NCBI GenBank assembly: GCA_903841185.1
Contig: CAIMIV010000012.1
Span: forward strand, 86 to 64,085
Origin: an uncultured bacterium
GTDB taxonomy: Bacteria > Patescibacteriota > Minisyncoccia > Moranbacterales > UBA2206
Reading direction: 5' to 3'
Length of the DNA: 64,000 nt
The position numbers were made by a program, and so were the translations under genes. This document shows positions 20,204 through 61,162 of the stretch, one piece after another (within the stretch, counting starts at the first letter, position 1; every line of letters begins with the position of its first letter). Below the pieces are notes generated by a model, which had not been told where the DNA came from, did not search any database, and saw only the letters and a list, made by a program, of their open reading frames with translations.

Positions 20204-21770
<1,567 letters not shown>

Positions 21771-22285
21771 AAAATTGCAAACTTCCGAAGAAATTTACAA
21801 CTACCTGGTATCTAATGAATCCAGGAATTTGTTTTGCAGTCTTGCGACCACAAAGTTTTTTAGCTCTTATCAAACCACCCGAAGGTGATAAGAAAGGACT
21901 AATCACAAAAAATTGCGATTTTGTCTAAATCTTTGATTTAGCTACAAAATCGTATCCCGAGAACTCGGGAAAGACTCCATAAACTAAAATCAAATTTGAT
22001 TTATACATTACATTCTGATAGAGCTACTAATTCTATCAAATGTAGATTCTGAACATATACATGTATATTCAATTGTTAAGGAAGCTATCTTTTGAGCTCA
22101 CCCGAGGAGTGCGAACAAAAAACACAGCGGTAAAAATATTTCAGTCAATATTTTCATTGCTGTATCTTCTCTTGTCACGTCGCTTGGGAGCGACTGTGAA
22201 TTGTTCGAATACTAATTTTAACTATTATTCGTTTTTTGCTTTTTTGTTGTTAATCTTTAAGTGACTCTTATTTGAGTACTTGTGT

Positions 22286-28307: not shown

Positions 28308-30227
28308 TTACGTGTTCGAATTTTTAGTTTCATCAATGAGGGCTCGCACACCGGCCAAATCCACGTTCGGTTTGGTTTTTTGCGGTTTGAATTTTTTCGG
28401 AGCGATGTGTGTCATTTGCGATAAACTCATTGATTTTCCCGGAATGGCATGACTGACTAGTTGTGGTTCGTTGGGAATCACTTTCTCCGCTACCGGTGCG
28501 ACTTGGATTGGATTCCTGGGAACATAGCTAGGGGGCGCCACTTGCTTTTCCGCCTCCACTTTTTTTCTGGCGACCATTCGTTGATGCTCTTTCAAACATT
28601 CTCGACAGAAGGCCGGACGAGCCGGGTCGGGTTTGAAAGGCACCGTGATGCTTTCTTCACACACCGAACAAACAGCGGAAAACATTTCTTTTGGAGCTTC
28701 ACTCTTTTTTTCTACCACGACTTCACTCCTAGTTTCTGACTGAGATACTATTTTTTTTGTCTCAAGAATAGTCGTCTCCCGAGGCAAGGTTCTCGTCACG
28801 CTTGGAACAACTGCTTTATTAAAAACATCCTGCTCTCGGATAATCTTATGTTCCACCGGCGCCGGCGCATCTTCCTGCAATTCCACATCATCCATATCAT
28901 CCGTCTCTTCCCTTCCGCCGGCCGGAGCTTCCTTGAACACTTCCATTCCGCTCCACCGCGCAATACGATCCTCCACTTCTGCTTTTGGCCTACCATATCT
29001 TTCTCGCGTGACTCGAATGATTGTTTCTTCGTTCCCGATAGTCTCTGTTAAATCCAGTGGCGGCAAAGTAGTGGCAGAAAAAGCATCCCCTGCCACGCCA
29101 TCAATCATTAGTTTCAAATAAATATTATATTTCGTCAGATTTACAATGTCATTCATCATAAAGACCGGTTCAAATTCCTTCTCCAAATGCTCGGCATCCT
29201 CCGCCCCCACGCGAAAAGACACAATGGTGCCCACATTGCCGAAAACCGCGTCCCGCACCGTAGCATTGCCGTCAAAAATTAATTGGTTGATATATTGATG
29301 CGCCAGAATCAAATTGAGGCGATATTTTCTGGCTTCCGAAAGAATATTGGCAAAAGATTCTGTGGCAAAATTTTGGAATTCATCTACGTATAAATAGAAA
29401 TCTTTTCTCTGCGCTTCCGGCATCGTCACCCGACCCATGGCCGCTAATTGAATTTTGGTGATAATCATGCCTCCCAACAGCCGCATAGAATCTTCTCCGA
29501 TCCTTCCTTTGCTCAAATTGATAATCAATATTTTTTGGTTGTCCATAATCTCAGTCATATCAATCGTTGATTTGGCTTGTCCGACAATGTGGCGAATGAC
29601 AGAAGAAGAGAGAAATTGCCCAACCTTGTTCTGAATAGCCGCCACCGCCTCTTTCCGAAACTTATCCTCCCACTTATCAAACTCATTCAACCAAAAAGCT
29701 TTCACCACCGGATCTTTGATTTTTGGATACACCCGCTTGCGATAGTCCTTGTCATTCATCATGCGGTTCACGCCCAGCATGGTGGATCCGGGATAATCCA
29801 AAAGAGCCAGAATAGTATTATTCAAAATATATTCCATCCTGGCACTCCACACATCCGGCCAGATTTTTTTGAACACCCCCATCATGCCTGACGCCACTAG
29901 ATTTTTTTTGTCATCCGCCACTGACTCCAAAATATTGAAAGCCAAAGGAAATTCCGCATCCGACGGATTGAAATAGACTACGTCATTTACCCGATTGGCC
30001 GGAACCGCTTGCAACATTTTTTCCGCAAACTCACCATGAGGATCCACCACACACACGCCTTCACCATTGCGAATATCCTGGATGGCCATGTTTTCCAACA
30101 GATTAGATTTTCCCATACCGGTTTTTCCGATGACATACATATGTCTGGTGCGGTCATCCCTCTTGATTCCAAAAACTCTTTCCTGATTTCTAAAATTAGT
30201 TTTGGCAAAAAAATTTATCTCTGGCAT
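28308..30227 (-). CDS. P-loop NTPase of the FtsK/HerA/TraG-like (AAA_10/DUF87-type) kind, with C-terminal CxxC...CxxC zinc ribbon
   Basis: Walker A 'GKTGMGKS' near the N-terminus and Walker B 'LYVDEFQ'. C-terminal 'CSVCEES...FCRECLKEH'. Confidence 0.55.
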   Translation of the reverse strand: MPEINFFAKTNFRNQERVFGIKRDDRTRHMYVIGKTGMGKSNLLENMAIQDIRNGEGVCVVDPHGEFAEKMLQAVPANRVNDVVYFNPSDAEFPLAFNILESVADDKKNLVASGMMGVFKKIWPDVWSARMEYILNNTILALLDYPGSTMLGVNRMMNDKDYRKRVYPKIKDPVVKAFWLNEFDKWEDKFRKEAVAAIQNKVGQFLSSSVIRHIVGQAKSTIDMTEIMDNQKILIINLSKGRIGEDSMRLLGGMIITKIQLAAMGRVTMPEAQRKDFYLYVDEFQNFATESFANILSEARKYRLNLILAHQYINQLIFDGNATVRDAVFGNVGTIVSFRVGAEDAEHLEKEFEPVFMMNDIVNLTKYNIYLKLMIDGVAGDAFSATTLPPLDLTETIGNEETIIRVTRERYGRPKAEVEDRIARWSGMEVFKEAPAGGREETDDMDDVELQEDAPAPVEHKIIREQDVFNKAVVPSVTRTLPRETTILETKKIVSQSETRSEVVVEKKSEAPKEMFSAVCSVCEESITVPFKPDPARPAFCRECLKEHQRMVARKKVEAEKQVAPPSYVPRNPIQVAPVAEKVIPNEPQLVSHAIPGKSMSLSQMTHIAPKKFKPQKTKPNVDLAGVRALIDETKNSNT

Positions 30228-30279
30228 ACTGTTATTTTTTTAAATACTTACTCTTTTTTTAAATTATAAAATATAAACT

Positions 30280-31518
30280 CTATTCAATAGGCAAATTGAA
30301 TGGCGGCGTGCCTTTTTTCGATTCTACTCTCGGCACGGCTGGCGTGATAACCCCCATATCCGGAAAATGATAGATGGTAGCAAATTCCGTAGTAGAAAGA
30401 GCCACAGTATTTCCATCCGTGTTACGCTTACGATAGCGGTTAAACAATCTTCTTTTCATCGTTTGCGCTCTGGCATCCGTCGCAATGAAATGAGCGGTGG
30501 TCTTTGTATTATCAGGGCGAAGATTGTTGGAGTTCAAATCATTGAATTGGCGCAATACTCCGAAAAAAATAGTTGGCAAAGCTCCATCAAAATTTTCTCG
30601 CTTTCCCACACTTAAAAATCTCATCTTGACCTTATAGAAATTCTTGCTTAGATTCGTCTCCAAACCTTTCAACGTTTCACTCTCCATGGGAGTAAGACGA
30701 AAAGCCAAAGGTTGATCACTTTTTTTGGCCGTAGTGGCAAATTCCACCGGTCCCCACAAGCCTGCAAAAATATTACTGAGCACATCCAGAAAATCATCCA
30801 ATATAGTTCTTTTATCCCCAGTGTCCCGCCCCGCCAACTTCTGCACCTGTTTCATCTGTTCCTTTCGCCAGGTCTCAGGCAAAGGAGAGACAACCATCTG
30901 CCACAGCAAATTTTGTCCCGGAGAAATAGACGCAAAGAGTTCCAGAAAACCGGCCATCGGGTCAACCATGGTACCGGTGATGTCTTCCTCAAACTTATCA
31001 TAGGTGCGGATGGGGAAAGGGTCAGGCTGTGACAAGATAATATCCGATCCCCAAGCATCCCAATCTTTATTAGGTATCACCAGAGGAAACTTCTTGATAT
31101 AATCATCCACCTCAAAAACTTCCGCCCCCGGATATTGGGCATACACCTGACTCTCCACTAATGTCTTCAGTTTTTTCTGCACTCGGATGTAATAATGAAT
31201 TTCTCCACCCAGACTCACCAGTTCAAAGCTAAACTTGTCTGTATATTTCCCTTGTAACCATTCCTCGAAACAATTGAAAGTCACCACCACACCGCTCAGG
31301 GCCATAAAAATCACTTCCATAGGCTTAGGACCACGCTCCAGTTCGTTTGGTGGGATAACCTCCAACATAGTCCATTCCAAGCTGTTTGCCCAAGTATCCT
31401 TTATAAAGTCCGCCCAGGCTACTTTGAAAAGATAATAAAAAGCCACCGGCAAGATAATCCACCACAATTGGGAGAAAGGTTGCCAGAGGCTTTTTAATAT
31501 TTCGATATAAGTATTCAT
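30280..31518 (-). CDS. Hypothetical membrane-anchored protein, co-oriented with the upstream NTPase
   Basis: N-terminal TM helix (LWWIILPVAFYYLF). 412 aa. A 50-nt gap separates it from the NTPase gene. Confidence 0.45.
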   Translation of the reverse strand: MNTYIEILKSLWQPFSQLWWIILPVAFYYLFKVAWADFIKDTWANSLEWTMLEVIPPNELERGPKPMEVIFMALSGVVVTFNCFEEWLQGKYTDKFSFELVSLGGEIHYYIRVQKKLKTLVESQVYAQYPGAEVFEVDDYIKKFPLVIPNKDWDAWGSDIILSQPDPFPIRTYDKFEEDITGTMVDPMAGFLELFASISPGQNLLWQMVVSPLPETWRKEQMKQVQKLAGRDTGDKRTILDDFLDVLSNIFAGLWGPVEFATTAKKSDQPLAFRLTPMESETLKGLETNLSKNFYKVKMRFLSVGKRENFDGALPTIFFGVLRQFNDLNSNNLRPDNTKTTAHFIATDARAQTMKRRLFNRYRKRNTDGNTVALSTTEFATIYHFPDMGVITPAVPRVESKKGTPPFNLPIE

Positions 31519-31580
31519 TTTATTTTAAATATTTGTCGTTGCAAATTTACTCTTTTTGTTTGGATGGGATGGTGCTAAAT

Positions 31581-32639
31581 TTATTTCTTAAGCCCATATC
31601 TATTATCCTGTTTCACGAATTCTTTTTTATTATTCAAATTTATCATCACCGTGGTTTTTTTTACTTGTCTGGATTTAGCAATTTCTTCCAGCAACTCTTC
31701 TTTTGTCATCGCGTGGCCGCTCTTTTCCAATATTCTCTTGATCACCTCTTTGATTGTTCCCGGCACATAACCCCATTCCCGCAACGCATACGTTCCTCTG
31801 CCGATAAGCACAAAACGATCATCTTTTATCAGCTCGTTATGCACTGTTTGGATATGTGATTTTCTTTTGCCGATTCCAAAGGCATCAATGGATTTGGTAA
31901 TTTCCGTAAAATGCAAGGGCTTCTTTTCTTCCTTCAAAATAAGGTAGATTCTTTCTCTGGTTCCTTTGGGATTTATTTCCATCCAATGAGAAAACCCCCA
32001 TTTGCCAAATTTATTTTCGGATATTTCATTCAGAACATCCAAGAAACTGAGAATCTTATTTTTTGTCATTTCCGGATGAGCCTTGGTTATCTTCTCTACA
32101 ACCTCAGTGTCACTAAGTGGCACTTTGCTGAGAGAAAAAACATCTTTGGCTATCTTGGAAAAATTTTCTACTTCTCCTAGAATATCTCTTGAGACTGCCC
32201 ATGATTTTCTCAATAATTCCTTATTTTTAATTTCCATTATTCTATTCGAACAAAGAGCAAAAAAAGCAATAGCTCTTTCCTCCTTCAGATTTCCTGCAGC
32301 CAATTTTTCCAATAAATACTCTTCACTTATTATACCATCTCTTTTGGATATTTCCAAAATAATTTTTTCTTCCGCCAATTTGAAAACCTCCGCATCAGCC
32401 ATCTTGGAAACCTTTTTGATGGAATCGGAAATTATTTGCCGGACGCGTTCGCGCGTTATCTGATAGTCGCTGCCTATTTTTTCCAGTGTTTCTAGCTCTC
32501 CACTGGCCAAGCCATATCTTTTTTTCAAGATTTCTTGTGAACGCTGCGGCAAATGAGTCAAGATCGCATTCGCCAACCCTAAGAAAGTCTGTTTGACCTG
32601 CTTAGAGATTTTTTTAGTTGTCATGTTTGCTTTTTCCAT
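31581..32639 (-). CDS. Sigma-70 region-4-like HTH domain protein with C-terminal extension
   Basis: 'LPQRSQEILKKRYGL...LEKIGSDYQITRERVRQIISDSIKKV' matches the sigma-70 region 4.2 consensus. Confidence 0.5.
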   Translation of the reverse strand: MEKANMTTKKISKQVKQTFLGLANAILTHLPQRSQEILKKRYGLASGELETLEKIGSDYQITRERVRQIISDSIKKVSKMADAEVFKLAEEKIILEISKRDGIISEEYLLEKLAAGNLKEERAIAFFALCSNRIMEIKNKELLRKSWAVSRDILGEVENFSKIAKDVFSLSKVPLSDTEVVEKITKAHPEMTKNKILSFLDVLNEISENKFGKWGFSHWMEINPKGTRERIYLILKEEKKPLHFTEITKSIDAFGIGKRKSHIQTVHNELIKDDRFVLIGRGTYALREWGYVPGTIKEVIKRILEKSGHAMTKEELLEEIAKSRQVKKTTVMINLNNKKEFVKQDNRYGLKK

Positions 32640-32808
32640 ATGTAAATACTTAATTTTTTACTTCAAGCCATATTATCACATAATGGATATATTTGTCAAG
32701 GGCTTGTGGATTCTTGTCAAAATTATTCTTAAACTGCCTACTTTTTCGTCCTAATTGACTAACTAAAAAATCCCCTTTCGGGGATTTCACTTGTGCGCCC
32801 ACCAGGAC

Positions 32809-32950
32809 ATCTCACTCGCTTCGCTCTCAATAGGGCTTCCCTGCCTACCGGCAGGCAGGCGCCCTCTTGCCCTCCTCATTCTTCGTCGGTCACCCCCAAC
32901 GGGCACCTCCCGGTTCCCGACCCCTCCCCTGTCCTCGTCCTGGCGGGCCA
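32809..32950 (-). other. Anomalously GC-rich (~70%) 140-nt non-coding segment closed by a CCAGGAC/GTCCTGG helix and ending in a copy of the tRNA-Lys 3' end
   Basis: Composition contrasts sharply with the ~40% GC surroundings. Contains a CCTGCC-GGTA-GGCAGG hairpin. Flanked on both sides by near-identical AAATCCC(C)-GNNA-(G)GGGATTTTTT terminator-like hairpins at 32765-32787 and 32954-32974. Confidence 0.4.
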
Positions 32951-32982
32951 AGCAAAAAATCCCTCGCGGGATTTATATAATG

Positions 32983-33055
32983 TGCGCCCACCAGGACTCG
33001 AACCTGGGACCGTTTGCTTAAAAGGCAACTGCTCTACCAACTGAGCTATGAGCGC
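32983..33055 (-). tRNA. tRNA-Lys (anticodon TTT)
   Basis: Cloverleaf folded by hand. Acceptor GCGCTCA/TGGGCGC, D-arm GCTC-AGTTGGTA-GAGC, anticodon loop CTTTTAA, T-arm CCAGG-TTCGAGT-CCTGG. No encoded CCA. Confidence 0.8.
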
Positions 33056-33061
33056 ATTAAT

Positions 33062-33316
33062 TCAATTTTTAATAAAACTTTTTATAAATTCCCTGCCTCT
33101 AAAACTCTTTAATTCCTTCTCTCTTTTCACAACGTCTGCTCTTGTTGCAAATTCTTCTTTATAAATCAGCTCCCAATTTCCATAATTCTTACTCGTAAAC
33201 GAAGTGCTTTTATTTTTAAGCAATCCATTATGCCTTTGTAATCTTACTTCTAAATCAGCAGTTTGTCCAATATATATTTTATTCGATTGATTCCTAATTG
33301 CGTATACGTAAAACAT
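33062..33316 (-). CDS. Free-standing GIY-YIG nuclease domain protein (84 aa)
   Basis: 'FYVYAIRNQSNKIYIGQTADLEVRLQRHN' contains the GIY...YIG core and the conserved Arg and Glu (UPF0213/Slx1-like mini-endonuclease). Confidence 0.75.
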   Translation of the reverse strand: MFYVYAIRNQSNKIYIGQTADLEVRLQRHNGLLKNKSTSFTSKNYGNWELIYKEEFATRADVVKREKELKSFRGREFIKSFIKN

Positions 33317-33325
33317 ATTATTATA

Positions 33326-33386
33326 CCTGGGACCGTTTGCTTAAAAGTCCGCCAGCTGGCGGATCTACCAACTGAGCTATGAGCGC
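33326..33386 (-). pseudogene. Degenerate partial copy of tRNA-Lys (5' two-thirds) with a 16-bp perfect palindrome replacing the D/anticodon junction
   Basis: Matches the intact tRNA-Lys and its leader over 'GCGCTCATAGCTCAGTTGGTAGA' and 'CTTTTAAGCAAACGGTCCCAGG'. TCCGCCAGCTGGCGGA is inserted. The T-loop and 3' acceptor strand are missing, and the GIY-YIG ATG lies 9 nt after CCAGG. Confidence 0.55.
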
Positions 33387-33474
33387 ATTAATTCAATTTT
33401 TTGCAAAAAACAAAATCAGTTATAAGTTAATAACTTTTATTAGTATATCACTTCTACAATTTCCGTCAATGTTT

Positions 33475-43470: not shown

Positions 43471-43532
43471 AAAATTATATTAAATTATTTACTTATATAT
43501 TTTACCATGTAATTTTTGTTAGTTCTAATAAA

Positions 43533-43592
43533 ACATTCTGGTATTCTGTTTACCCTGTAGCGCTATGCTTCTGGGGCAGAATGTCGGAGTGT
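43533..43592. repeat. Intergenic hairpin repeat R8 (long form + tail)
   Basis: Same core with the 28-nt insert. The tail is identical to R4. Confidence 0.75.
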
Positions 43593-43739
43593 CAGTTAAG
43601 GGTTAGTTGGAACGGCCAAGGCGTCCTGCCTGCCGGTAGGCAGGGATTTAGCCGATTCGTCGATTTTCAATTTCCAGTGAATGTAACAGGTATAGGATAT
43701 GAAAGCGCAGCGTCCCCTCGCGTATGACACAGGCAGGAA

Positions 43740-60374: not shown

Positions 60375-61162
60375 GCTACTCTCCTCGCTTGTTGGGATTA
60401 GTGTTTTTTGACTCTTAATTACTAGTAAGAACACATTGCAACTACTTTTTAGTGCAATGTATCATTATAGCAATAAGGCTAAGAAAAGTCAATACCCTGT
60501 ATAAGGTGCACACGCCTTAGACGCTTTCTATATCCATACAACCTGATGCATATGTTTTATAGCAATAAAAAGCGCGCCCCGCTGGAGTTTTCAATCAATA
60601 GATTAATGCAACACCAGTACCATGCTGAAACGGCCAAATCATATTTTAGCCGTTAAAAAATAAACCCCCCTTCCATTCATTTTTTAATCCCGGGTACTTG
60701 GGATAATTTTTAAGCAAAAACCCTCCCCTATTCAAAGTTCAGCCTTAAAGTCTGAATATGCGGATTTCAAATTCAAAGTTACAGTGCGTCCGCCTCGGAT
60801 CGACAAGTAATTGTCTTCACGAGTCGAGACGGGCCATTTTCTTTGGCAGCAAAGAAAGTGGCAAAAAGAAACTGCTGCCCAGGCTCCCTCCATAGGCGGG
60901 CACGGCGTGCTGTCTAAATTTCTATCCGCCAGCTGGCGGATCAAATTCCCATAAATGCTAAAAGGATTGTTGGTAGGAAATTTCTTAACGCACACAAGTT
61001 TCAATTTGTAGCTTGATATTCCGCTAGTGCGGGAACTTTTTAAAAGTCGAGACGGGAGAAATGCACTTCGCTGTGGGCGAGAAAACGTTTTTTTAAAACT
61101 TTCATCTTGTGTATTCCTTTGTCATATCAACAGAAATAATATAGTCCTTGGCTAAAACTTTT

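Follow-up and report, generated by a model that had tools for sequence, protein, structure and literature searches.

A 189-bp gene-less, G+C-rich block in the tail of a Moranbacteria tRNA-Lys gene and elements of like layout beside other tRNAs

tRNA genes are the classic landing sites of large integrative elements. In the 64-kb stretch of DNA analysed here (the window), which belongs to a Candidatus Moranbacteria (Patescibacteria) bacterium, a tRNA-Lys gene is followed by a short, G+C-rich segment that ends in a copy of the tRNA's own 3' strand, raising the questions of how this segment came to lie there and whether it is mobile DNA, an RNA gene or debris. An earlier note on this DNA had proposed either that a structured small RNA had been inserted where the tRNA 3' end and its terminator are duplicated, or that a second tRNA-Lys copy, its T-loop bearing a large insertion, survives here as a relic.

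Anatomy of the tRNA-Lys locus

The G+C-rich segment makes up the far two-thirds of a 189-bp block that contains no gene and lies within the tail of tRNA-Lys (Table 1). The block combines a replacement 3' end for the tRNA with hairpin 1, the tRNA 3' strand in inverted copy and an interior of 128 nt, and no plausible ORF lies in its 189 nt. Two direct repeats, exact over 17 nt and spaced 189 nt apart, mark its limits; the second, hereafter copy C, is also the right arm of a 12-bp helix with one G.U pair formed by the arms GCCCGCCAGGAC/GTCCTGGTGGGC. A weaker complementarity of the left arm region to the whole T arm extends to ~32925 (24 nt, 75%). The arms and interior together (32948..32792; hereafter the element) span 157 nt at 67.5% G+C, which is the top G+C island of a window that is 40.1% G+C overall. 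The fold, at -95 kcal/mol, beats chance (z = -4.2), with none of 200 shuffles equalling it. The anatomy described in the earlier note thus holds throughout: a hairpin directly after tRNA-Lys, a G+C-rich stretch with pairing ends, its terminal copy of the tRNA 3' strand and a second, near-identical hairpin were all recovered.

Table 1. Features of the tRNA-Lys locus, in order of transcription of the tRNA
Feature	Position	Strand	Evidence or remark
Promoter-like site TTGACG-16-TATACT	33442..33469	-	head of tRNA-Lys locus; 10/12 matches, TG extension
Fragment A, partial upstream tRNA-Lys copy	33325..33401	-	BLAST pieces of 38 nt and 23 nt, 100% identity
PAL2 TCCGCCAGCTGGCGGA, 16-nt G+C palindrome	33348..33363	.	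inside fragment A
84-aa GIY-YIG nuclease ORF	33062..33316	-	Pfam PF01541, E = 1.2e-16
Intact tRNA-Lys(UUU)	32983..33055	-	ARAGORN; Rfam, 70.5 bits
Direct repeat 1 GTCCTGGTGGGCGCACA, tRNA nt 59-73 + CA	32981..32997	-	repeat search
Hairpin 1 AAATCCCGCGAGGGATTTTTT with T-run, terminator-like	32954..32974	-	consensus terminator scan; within inserted block
Left arm GCCCGCCAGGAC, inverted copy of tRNA nt 59-70	32937..32948	-	inverted-repeat search
Interior, 128 nt	32809..32936	-	65.6% G+C, 70% purine, several hairpins
Hairpin GGGAACC-GGGA-GGUGCCC	32901..32918	-	GNRA-type loop
Hairpin GUUGG-GGGUGA-CCGAC	32885..32900	-	
PAL1 CCTGCCTGCCGGTAGGCAGG, 20-nt palindrome	32840..32859	.	within GGGC/GCCC at 32864..32833
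Direct repeat 2 (right arm, copy C), tRNA nt 59-73 + CA	32792..32808	-	repeat search
Hairpin 2 AAATCCCCGAAAGGGGATTTTTT with T-run	32765..32787	-	homologous to the L149 and L151 terminators

The shape AATCC(C/T)...GGGATTTTT is confined to two places in the 64 kb, namely hairpins 1 and 2, and because of this we regard them as paralogues rather than as two examples of a generic terminator shape. Hairpin 2, which shows an 8-bp stem and T6 by eye and is absent from the list returned by the consensus terminator scan, is most probably the native tRNA-Lys terminator.

Upstream of the intact tRNA, the locus is itself a patchwork. Fragment A comprises, in order, a 15-nt flank AAAAATTGAATTAAT, tRNA nt 1-23 and nt 32-54, with a palindrome in place of the anticodon-stem region, and stops in the T-loop at T54. 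It represents a third partial tRNA-Lys copy, overlooked in the earlier note, and a further piece of the same mosaic. The GIY-YIG ORF is inserted between fragment A and the intact tRNA-Lys, with its 3' end overlapping a second copy of the 15-nt flank; among relatives it is missing from L148, L149 and L151 and left as a C-terminal remnant in L153. The promoter-like site at the head of the locus is kept in L149, and L151, L153 and L148 have a similar one. Other tRNA fragments interrupted by palindromes are also found at this locus.

The element recurs in three other contigs, identical save for an N-gap in one, and in diverged form in another species (L149), because of which we reject an assembly artefact; the window's version was reproduced in several samples. 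Three contigs break off inside the tRNA and one has its N-gap within the element: with their partial tRNA copies and repeats, such inserts break metagenome assemblies and can mislead tRNA annotation.

Empty and occupied sites

Comparison with relatives provides the polarity of the change. L151, L148 and L153 have empty sites, i.e., a tRNA-Lys without the element, whereas the window and L149 (neighbour gene 83% identical) are occupied and have 100% identical tRNA-Lys sequences. In L151 the tRNA is followed directly by CCCCGTAAAG...GGCAAG and the terminator; in L149 this native trailer adjoins copy C, not the intact tRNA. The placement of the L149 trailer, together with the empty sites, therefore indicates that the 189-nt block entered at the T-loop. 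Copy C is the original 3' end of tRNA-Lys, displaced by the insertion, and with it the trailer and terminator of the gene were shifted downstream, where they now close the element. The empty-site form would have had the tRNA joined directly to CAAGTGAAATCCCC. Insertion into the T-loop/3' end probably took place in the common ancestor of this Moranbacteria species and L149. The 3' end of the present tRNA-Lys from G59 on is part of the inserted block, which supplies replacement nt 59-73 and keeps the tRNA intact. Wherever it was delimited, the tRNA-end repeat starts inside the T-loop and runs to the tRNA 3' end; its length is 17 nt in the window and 16 nt in L149, and a metagenome contig considered below, L115, has 21 nt with CCA counted in.

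These observations bear on the two older proposals. The first was right about the insertion, the duplication and the paralogous hairpins; the functional RNA that it postulated is a separate matter, weighed below. The second, in the form given, is unsupported in that no second 5' half, D arm or anticodon arm can be traced, and the 5' arm of the element is an inverted copy of the 3' strand rather than an acceptor 5' strand; it came near in placing an insertion in a T-loop, but the tRNA-Lys in question is the single ancestral one and the 3' copy is its displaced end.

A complete and a partial tRNA copy bounding an insert are a recognised mark of integration into tRNA genes (PMC9897764). The present locus shows this footprint, with the partial copy adjoining the native flank and the sites in relatives empty and uninterrupted. 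Among relatives, the occurrence of the element is patchy, and the tRNA and element remain linked despite a rearrangement upstream (L003) and a break in synteny downstream. As an anchor for comparison, the downstream sigma/HARE-HTH gene, for which 80 species-representative loci and four closer relatives were compared, was uninformative because synteny breaks at ~32705-32728. The Band_7 protein is too conserved for choosing close relatives, and this anchor yielded the empty site L148.

The same layout beside other tRNAs

The same succession, running from a direct repeat within the tRNA through a terminator, an inverted arm and a loop to the second direct repeat, recurs in L013, beside a tRNA-Gln and with Gln-type arms, and in two unrelated metagenome contigs, L115 and L112. 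The latter pair came from an arms-only metagenome scan, in which the remaining 49 of the 51 matches were unrelated high-G+C repeats or chance. In that scan, L098 and L100 are a different tandem repeat; L025, from a generic scan, is a G+C-rich disordered tail within an ORF.

In each case where the tRNA 3' region can be read (window/L149, L115 and L013), the arms match the neighbouring tRNA; the L112 contig holds just the last 8 nt of its tRNA. The closing stems measure 12 nt at 92% complementarity in the window and 15-17 nt in L115, L112 and L013, enclosing loops of 110-130 nt in elements of ~135-165 nt, and of the two direct-repeat copies one overlaps the right arm, whereas the other, on the far side of hairpin 1, precedes the left arm by ~35-65 nt. 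The fold z-scores of the other three instances are -7.5, -8.0 and -5.4. In every instance folding of the tRNA-sense strand is favoured over that of its complement by 8-13 kcal/mol; the purine fraction is 0.56-0.70, and the G.T pairs are borne by the purine-rich strand. The interiors of the four instances are non-alignable and have no common core, and in L115 and L112 the two terminators of each are unrelated to one another. This recurrence beside the tRNAs of unrelated bacteria suggests an undescribed kind of small tRNA-targeting element.

Cassette, small RNA or debris

We give about an even chance to the proposal that the element is a miniature, non-autonomous, integrase-less hairpin cassette, most likely selfish DNA, with a functional small RNA as a possibility. 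Its attachment site would be the 3' end of its own target, carried as two inverted, tRNA-derived arms that, when folded as single-stranded DNA or RNA, would mimic the T-stem/acceptor duplex of the tRNA. A recombinase supplied in trans would recombine this site with the tRNA gene; a circle integrating through its hairpin site would yield the permuted layout observed, as it does for integron cassettes (attC) and the CTX phage (attP), and each inserting cassette would regenerate the tail of the tRNA and a terminator. Any transcript of the element would arise passively, by read-through from the tRNA. A selfish, modular nature is indicated because the interiors are non-alignable, the palindromes PAL1 and PAL2 are dispersed (see below), the distribution is patchy, and the locus also has the GIY-YIG insertion and other tRNA fragments broken by palindromes. 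If true, a recurrent cassette of ~190 bp without genes would add a new and minimal type to the mobile DNA that targets tRNA genes, one that repairs the tRNA it interrupts and bears a hairpin built from that tRNA's own 3' end, and would carry the logic of hairpin sites such as those of attC or CTX over to a new target. More tentatively, we raise the broader claim that such ~190-bp integrase-less tRNA-homing cassettes are an undescribed class, or else that the hairpin-rich core is a conserved small RNA with a tRNA minihelix as its cap, matured by the tRNA-processing machinery.

The closest topological parallels are the integron attC and CTX attP sites, which share the succession of core repeat, body, inverse arm, variable loop and core repeat. 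As with attC, the inverted arms are imperfect, and across the four instances structure is kept while sequence is not. In folded attC sites the recombinogenic strand is reported to be purine-rich, with more G:T pairs and greater stability (PMC5027507), and the tRNA-sense strand of the elements is of this kind. Gene-less integron cassettes with little beyond the site itself are conceivable. The differences are that the elements target a tRNA gene, with a stem that reproduces the tRNA's own T-stem/acceptor duplex; that the arms GCCCGCCAGGAC/GTCCTGGTGGGC lack the AAC/GTT core, and with it the RYYYAAC (R') and GTTRRRY (R'') core sites, of attC, which counts against the cassette; that most attC variable structures are smaller than the loops seen here; and that no attI, array or IntI was found in the 31 ORFs screened in this one 64-kb window.

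A comparison with MITE and BIME/REP elements is also apt in terms of size (~150 bp), the inverted repeats of 12-17 bp at both ends, a strong potential for hairpins, an intergenic position after terminators and the absence of coding capacity. Unlike MITEs, however, the element has no target-site duplication outside its inverted repeats, the right arm itself being the duplicated target, and its arms vary with the neighbouring tRNA. No multicopy family was seen in the 64-kb window and 1.09 Mb of related loci.

Further points count against a cassette. Pfam searches found no recombinase, transposase or reverse transcriptase among the 31 window ORFs (mostly at ~11-46 kb), and L115 offered only a borderline resolvase-type HTH match. 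An nhmmer search of the 1.09 Mb of related loci found no second full copy (the 64-kb window holds one), scans of viral contigs with the arms and conserved core detected no element, and BLAST against phages and plasmids matched only the tRNA part of L115; mobility of the cassette is thus inferred rather than observed. A circle of 189 nt is incapable of being an autonomous replicon, and the paralogy of hairpin 1 with the native terminator is unexpected for a foreign cassette. Finally, the window and L149 agree at 117 of 123 interior positions (95%) outside a 16-nt deletion in the latter, and judged from this pair purifying selection on some function fits better than decaying junk.

This identity is also an argument for the alternative of a functional structured small RNA of ~155 nt, which we hold to be possible but clearly short of probable. 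Such an RNA would share the tRNA-Lys transcript, by read-through past hairpin 1, and end at hairpin 2. The closing helix would imitate the acceptor stem of the tRNA stacked on its T stem, the 3' end would be the same as the tRNA's, and RNase P, RNase Z, the CCA-adding enzyme or RNase III could trim the transcript to a stable molecule; purine-rich GGA and GGAGG motifs suggest a decoy for a protein or the ribosome. At third codon positions the window and L149 share only 57% identity; for the spacer plus hairpin 1 of the same block the figure is 79%, significantly below the interior (Fisher P = 0.008). A protein-coding reading is rejected, in that the 1-nt and 16-nt indels between the two break every frame and a 7-codon ORF alone survives. 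Three substitutions fall in the proposed helices and loops: a C to U change that keeps a G.U pair, a G to U change that turns the A.G mismatch of the hairpin at 32901..32918 in the window into an A-U pair in L149, and an A to G change in a loop. All three are neutral for the proposed structure or improve it. The hairpin at 32885..32900 differs in L149 only in its loop. The better folding of the tRNA-sense strand throughout, with z from -4.2 to -8.0, the linkage of tRNA and element through rearrangements on both sides, and the discrete size of the instances also argue for an RNA.

Other observations speak against an RNA. There are zero compensatory double changes, none being possible with two sequences, and the most stable hairpin has lost one half to the 16-nt deletion in L149. 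A folded single-stranded DNA site would be just as likely to show strand asymmetry (PMC5027507). An unrelated 33-nt hairpin at the locus matches at 32/33 positions in L149 and L151, a pair with 49% identity at third positions, and is nonetheless patchily present; hence, the identity of G+C-rich hairpins at this locus need not mean selection on an RNA. The absence of an alignable core from the four interiors also speaks against the RNA, as does the lack of a promoter for the element conserved between the window and L149, with a terminator-like hairpin directly upstream.

Known RNAs that arise near or from a tRNA transcript, with an acceptor/T-stem-like closing helix and a tRNA-like 3' end, include tmRNA with its tRNA-like domain, the bacterial Y RNA YrlA and sRNAs cut from tRNA 3' trailers, such as 3'ETS-leuZ. 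The element differs from these in having no T-loop, D-arm mimic or family motif, and its acceptor mimic is imperfect, the top two pairs being mismatched in the window. Rfam 15 cmscan searches, run over the whole window at the gathering score and over 32650-33100 at E <= 10, found the tRNA alone, ARAGORN detected no tmRNA, and the elements of L112, L115 and L013 had no Rfam match either. Inspection by eye found no conserved motifs of SRP RNA, 6S, tmRNA or RNase P, in agreement with what the earlier note had reported for these four. To our knowledge, the non-coding RNAs of Patescibacteria have been little studied, and the core, if it is a selected RNA, would be a new tRNA-linked small RNA in this lineage.

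It is improbable, in our estimate, that the block is the deletion remnant of a kilobase-scale element, integrated by a tyrosine integrase at the T-loop/3' end of tRNA-Lys, that has lost nearly all of the content between attL and attR. The block does share with the attR-type tRNA fragments of prophages, ICEs and islands the repeat from the T-loop to the 3' end, the new 3' end supplied by the insert, the displaced fragment that retains the native flank and the empty sites in relatives, i.e., the classical footprint of an insertion (PMC9897764). However, it is 189 bp long, gene-less and without any integrase fragment, and reported inserts of such kind measure ~9-121 kb (PMC9897764). Its inverted repeat copy pairs with the attR-like copy to close a hairpin-rich loop, its interior, at 66% G+C, stands out from a genome of 40% G+C, and the right-hand repeat is not accompanied by the T-stem 5' half-site that a canonical core site needs. 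Moreover, the four independent instances share a small size and internal order that random deletions would not reproduce.

A local accident, in which slippage or fold-back repair tandemly duplicated the tRNA-Lys 3' end and terminator and palindromes later colonised the product, with neither mobility nor function, seems very improbable. It would explain why hairpins 1 and 2 are paralogous and both like the native L151 terminator, other partial tRNA-Lys duplications and palindrome insertions do occur at the locus, and fold-back repair would account for the adjacent inverted copy. Against it stand the interior, much better conserved than neutral sequence, and the five-feature layout beside different tRNAs in at least three lineages, with unrelated terminators in L115 and L112. 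A group I intron in the T-loop is rejected: joining fragment A (to T54) to copy C (from G59) rebuilds no T-loop, and the supposed intron would enclose an intact tRNA.

Dispersed palindromes

The interiors of the elements are partly made of dispersed G+C-rich palindromes. PAL1 occurs at two sites in the window, in L072, L074 and L054, and in 47 stretches of viral contigs, where it also lies within tRNA genes; its 3' half is deleted in L149. PAL2 has a second window site at 60925-60940 and is also present in L013, L043, L052, L074 and L153. Both are spread across Patescibacteria, with viral contigs known for PAL1 alone; the conserved core of the element is not dispersed. The 270-nt intergenic region that holds the second window copy of PAL1 has no significant fold and no Rfam match. 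Because the palindromes occur in independent assemblies from many studies, we reject an assembly-artefact or adapter origin for them.

Mitochondrial GC clusters offer a precedent: they are G+C palindromes that move, fuse into composites and pass between species via conserved flanks (PMC4478555). Like these yeast mitochondrial clusters and the hairpin elements of sponges, PAL1 and PAL2 are short, dispersed in an A+T-rich genome, patchy, sometimes flanked by short direct repeats, composite-forming and more identical between species than expected; they differ in residing in bacteria (Patescibacteria, and viral contigs for PAL1) rather than mitochondria, and in that the composite described here is framed by tRNA 3'-end arms at a fixed position in a tRNA gene. 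They thus point to a bacterial counterpart of the mitochondrial GC clusters. The 16- and 20-nt palindromes are also found inside tRNA genes, on viral contigs too in the case of PAL1, and apparently inside coding frames.

A miniature insert at the 3' end of tRNA-Lys

The strongest G+C island of the window is a hairpin-rich element on the minus strand, just 3' of tRNA-Lys(UUU), with a predicted fold of -95 kcal/mol (z = -4.2) for its segment. The earlier note had described a G+C-rich stretch adjoining this gene, closed by a duplicate of the tRNA 3' strand, with pairing ends and near-identical twin hairpins. All of this holds: the interior stands out against 40.1% G+C for the window, its arms pair over 12 bp with one G.U, the right-hand 17-mer is an exact copy of the tRNA-Lys 3' end at a spacing of 189 nt, and the hairpin shape AATCC(C/T)...GGGATTTTT occurs in 64 kb at the two sites of hairpins 1 and 2 only. 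The note had failed to match the stretch by eye to tmRNA, SRP RNA, 6S or RNase P, and Rfam searches over the element gave no match at either the gathering score or E <= 10. BLAST of the element against phage and plasmid records likewise returned nothing. A protein-coding element was rejected, there being no credible ORF, and its copies in the window and in the related locus L149 differ by 1-nt and 16-nt indels.

Features of the element and its surroundings in the window
Feature	Position	Strand	Details
tRNA-Lys(UUU)	33055..32983	minus	ARAGORN; Rfam 70.5 bits
Hairpin 1, AAATCCCGCGAGGGATTTTTT	32974..32954	minus	terminator-like by consensus scan
Left arm, GCCCGCCAGGAC	32948..32937	minus
Interior	32936..32809	minus	128 nt, 65.6% G+C, 70% purine
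PAL1, CCTGCCTGCCGG(T/C)AGGCAGG	32859..32840		dispersed 20-nt palindrome
Right-hand 17-mer (copy C), GTCCTGGTGGGCGCACA	32808..32792	minus
Hairpin 2, AAATCCCCGAAAGGGGATTTTTT	32787..32765	minus
GIY-YIG ORF	33062-33316	minus	84 aa
Fragment A	33325-33401		partial tRNA-Lys copy
PAL2, TCCGCCAGCTGGCGGA	33348-33363; 60925-60940		dispersed 16-nt palindrome
Promoter-like site	33469..33442		ahead of fragment A
Second PAL1	43625-43644	plus	exact recurrence
Intergenic region of second PAL1	43471-43739		270 nt
16S gene	20204-21771	minus	matches bacterial SSU model
Downstream gene cluster	28308-32699	minus	sigma-70 region 4/HARE-HTH protein, DUF8128, TrwB-like ATPase with zinc finger

Since the element is identical in three further contigs with the same neighbouring protein, save for an N-gap in one (L001), it is genuine and no assembly artefact. 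Three contigs (L150, L152 and L154) end inside tRNA-Lys, and the run of N in L001 (~2810-2900) falls inside the element; these breaks are consistent with partial tRNA copies and repeats confusing assemblers.

Our comparison of empty and occupied sites rests on the upstream anchor, which is the informative one. Upstream of the element lie the GIY-YIG ORF, a 166-aa membrane protein and a Band_7 protein. Downstream, the sigma-70 region 4/HARE-HTH cluster is common to the relatives compared (L084-L092, 84-64% identity), the genes upstream of it are different in every one, and homology ends at ~32705-32728 with a different gene beyond in each. These relatives and the window share a near-identical promoter-like sequence, CCCTTGACAAA...TGTGATAATATGG, at this cluster.

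Using the upstream anchor, we found the element absent from L148 (166-aa protein 48% identical), where Band_7, the 166-aa gene, tRNA-Lys and a terminator are followed after 56 nt by the next gene. It is also absent from L153 (73%) and from L151 (73%), where tRNA-Lys leads at once into a 33-nt trailer, CCCCGTAAAGTCGCCTTGCTCCTACGGGGCAAG, and a terminator. The element is present in L149 (83%), whose order is tRNA-Lys (73/73 identical to that of the window), hairpin 1, a diverged element and copy C; only then come the 33-nt trailer and hairpin 2. This placement identifies copy C, trailer and hairpin 2 as the ancestral tRNA 3' end and flank. What was inserted is accordingly 189 nt long, running from G59 of today's tRNA to the final base of the interior. 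The comparison thus shows that a 189-bp block entered at the T-loop/3' end, supplied the tRNA with a new 3' end and moved the original one downstream; the trailer was lost later in the window lineage. The direct repeat starts inside the T-loop and finishes at the tRNA 3' end, the footprint by which insertions into tRNA genes are recognized, the incoming DNA making good the portion it displaces; however, the footprints described bound elements of ~9-121 kb (PMC9897764), whereas the insert here is 189 bp and gene-less.

Recurrence of the layout beside other tRNAs

A metagenome scan fixing the two arms alone returned 51 loci, most of them unrelated high-G+C repeats, with the full layout in two, L115 and L112. 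In L115 (49% G+C), a tRNA-like gene ending in CAAGTCCTGGTGGGCCCACCA precedes a first terminator and the left arm GCCCACCAGGACTTG. The interior there is 68% G+C and is followed by 21 nt that exactly repeat the end of the tRNA, CCA included, and then by another terminator. Its tRNA-like gene (L115:1731-1800) has a CAT anticodon loop, an encoded CCA and 82-88% similarity to plasmid-borne tRNA genes; the D arm and anticodon stem are apparently disrupted, and there was no ARAGORN call and no match to the Rfam tRNA model at E <= 1. L112 opens on the end of a tRNA (TGGGCCCA) and a terminator; next come a left arm that copies the entire T arm in inverted form, an interior of 67% G+C and the 3' end once more. 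A fourth case, found by chance in L013 (Moraniibacteriota), adjoins tRNA-Gln: its arms are of the Gln type, its right copy matches the tRNA at 18/20 positions from the T-loop on, and its interior is a four-hairpin rosette including PAL2.

The layout therefore recurs next to different tRNAs, and the arms track the neighbouring tRNA wherever the 3' region of that tRNA can be read. Stem and repeat share their inner end in the window and L115, and approximately share it in L013. The L115, L112 and L013 elements have fold z-scores of -7.5, -8.0 and -5.4, and the interiors of the instances are unalignable except for short GA-rich motifs. Two other loci, L098 (756-1172) and L100 (330-626), carry tandem copies of another 133-141-nt high-G+C element with ends GGTGGCCCRCCAGGAG...CTCCTGGTGGGCCACC; they were retrieved solely through arms fitting the search pattern.

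Selfish cassette or small RNA

We give an even chance to the element being a gene-less hairpin cassette, a piece of selfish DNA. On this view a small circle would integrate by way of a hairpin site. Its stem would copy the T-stem/acceptor duplex of the tRNA gene and in this way resemble the double-stranded target, which would yield the observed order of direct repeat, body, inverted arm, loop and direct repeat. In its unintegrated permutation the unit would start with the left arm and continue through the interior and the right arm, which is the tRNA-like 3' end, to the terminator. The CTX phage attP is such a hairpin site, its stem mimicking the double-stranded target with the same resulting order. 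Integron cassettes reach the same integrated order via the attC hairpin site (PMC5027507), and a precedent for mobile G+C palindromes is offered by mitochondrial GC clusters, which merge into composites and cross species via conserved flanks (PMC4478555). Against the cassette stand several observations: no recombinase, transposase or reverse transcriptase was found in the 31 window ORFs screened, mostly at ~11-46 kb; neither a second copy nor an excised form turned up; hairpin 1 is paralogous to the native terminator; and conservation is high. Unlike PAL1 and PAL2, the conserved core of the window element showed no dispersed copies.

The main rival, a functional small RNA whose capping stem resembles a tRNA minihelix, we regard as possible but doubtful. 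Between the window and L149 the left arm and interior are 95.1% identical at aligned positions (117/123), as against 79% for the spacer and hairpin 1 (Fisher P = 0.008) and 77-79% for the neighbouring genes (P = 3e-6 vs gene); tRNA-Lys is 100% identical, and the 166-aa gene 89.5% at first and second codon positions and 57% at third. Three of the substitutions lie in proposed helices or loops and the rest outside assigned helices: one in the closing stem retains a G.U pair, one in the hairpin GGGAACC-GGGA-GGU(G/U)CCC turns an A.G mismatch in one copy into A-U in the other, and the third sits in a loop. Four points weigh against selection on an RNA. These two sequences contain no compensatory double changes. 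The 16-nt deletion in L149 takes out half of the most stable hairpin. The trailer is 32/33 identical between L149 and L151, where third codon positions are 49% and the neighbouring gene 69% identical, yet it is patchy, being missing from the window and L153; excess identity with patchy presence may thus characterize G+C hairpins here in general. Finally, the purine-rich strand, with its G.U/G.T pairs, is consistently 8-13 kcal/mol more stable, but folded attC sites are reported to show the same asymmetry on their recombinogenic strand (PMC5027507), and it hence does not tell an RNA from a folded DNA site. The trailer, CCCCGTAAAGTCGCCTTGCTCC(C/T)ACGGGGCAAG, lies directly 3' of tRNA-Lys or its displaced end at L149:2975-3007 and L151:3656-3688, and was not found in viral contigs or other fetched loci.

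A deletion remnant of a conventional island is improbable, and a purely local duplication accident slightly more so, both fitting poorly with the recurrence and uniform size. The ingredients are known, namely tRNA-gene integration footprints, hairpin recombination sites and dispersed G+C palindromes. What appears new is their combination: our literature search found no account of miniature integrase-less inserts, recurring in several lineages, with arms copied in inverted form from the 3' end of the target tRNA itself.

A mosaic locus and dispersed palindromes

Homologues of the flanking genes are labelled Candidatus Moranbacteria or Parcubacteria in their sources; no 23S match was found anywhere in the 64 kb. 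The relative L146 has a 16S gene (5890-7366) ~600 nt downstream of its pair of Band_7 and 167-aa genes, where other relatives have tRNA-Lys.

Fragment A, a third piece of tRNA-Lys, comprises a 15-nt flank AAAAATTGAATTAAT, tRNA nt 1-23, PAL2 in place of 8 nt, and tRNA nt 32-54, stopping at T54, where the GIY-YIG ORF starts. The flank is repeated just 5' of the intact tRNA-Lys, and the ORF is thereby bracketed by repeats of the flank and tRNA 5' part. This looks like a second, independent T-loop insertion, restoring the tRNA 5' part; both breakpoints, T54 and G59, are within the T-loop. The same palindrome-bearing fragment lies beside a GIY-YIG C-terminal remnant at L153:3590-3715. L149 lacks the GIY-YIG gene, and upstream of its intact tRNA-Lys (2580-2700) A+T-richer palindromes (TCAGCCATAGGCTGA, TCGACTATAGGTCGA and CCAGTCTATGGCTGG) break up two partial 5' fragments of tRNA-Lys. 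In L003, a contig of the same species from another sample, the same tRNA, element and sigma gene are preceded by a different 5' flank (1-160 vs window 33056-33120) that has a promoter-like site of its own and a divergent signal-peptide gene; the acceptor stem has C5 in place of T5. Either the 5' end of the tRNA was rearranged at strain level, or this is a second copy.

PAL1 also occurs in distant Patescibacteria loci (L072:8398, 8485 and ~8366; L074:8788) and in 47 viral-contig stretches (L155-L201) of contigs with 33% to 70% G+C, with up to 4 copies per locus. It lies in a stop-free frame at 26/54 sites, where it can read GLPAGRQ, and short direct repeats flank several copies. The intergenic region with the second PAL1 has a GGC/GCC outer stem like that of the element; it matches nothing in Rfam and does not fold significantly (z = -1.2 and -0.8). 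Three viral contigs place PAL1 within tRNA sequence: as the long variable arm of a 92-nt tRNA-Met called by ARAGORN (L185:2239-2330), within a decayed copy of that tRNA-Met (L157:~8616), and in the D-loop of a fragment whose anticodon loop is of the Lys type (L196:~515). PAL2 recurs at L013:122, L043:3110, L052:6818, L074:2215 and L153:3674; in the window and L153 it takes the place of the 5' strand of the anticodon stem in a partial tRNA-Lys copy, and in L013 it is part of the tRNA-Gln-associated element.
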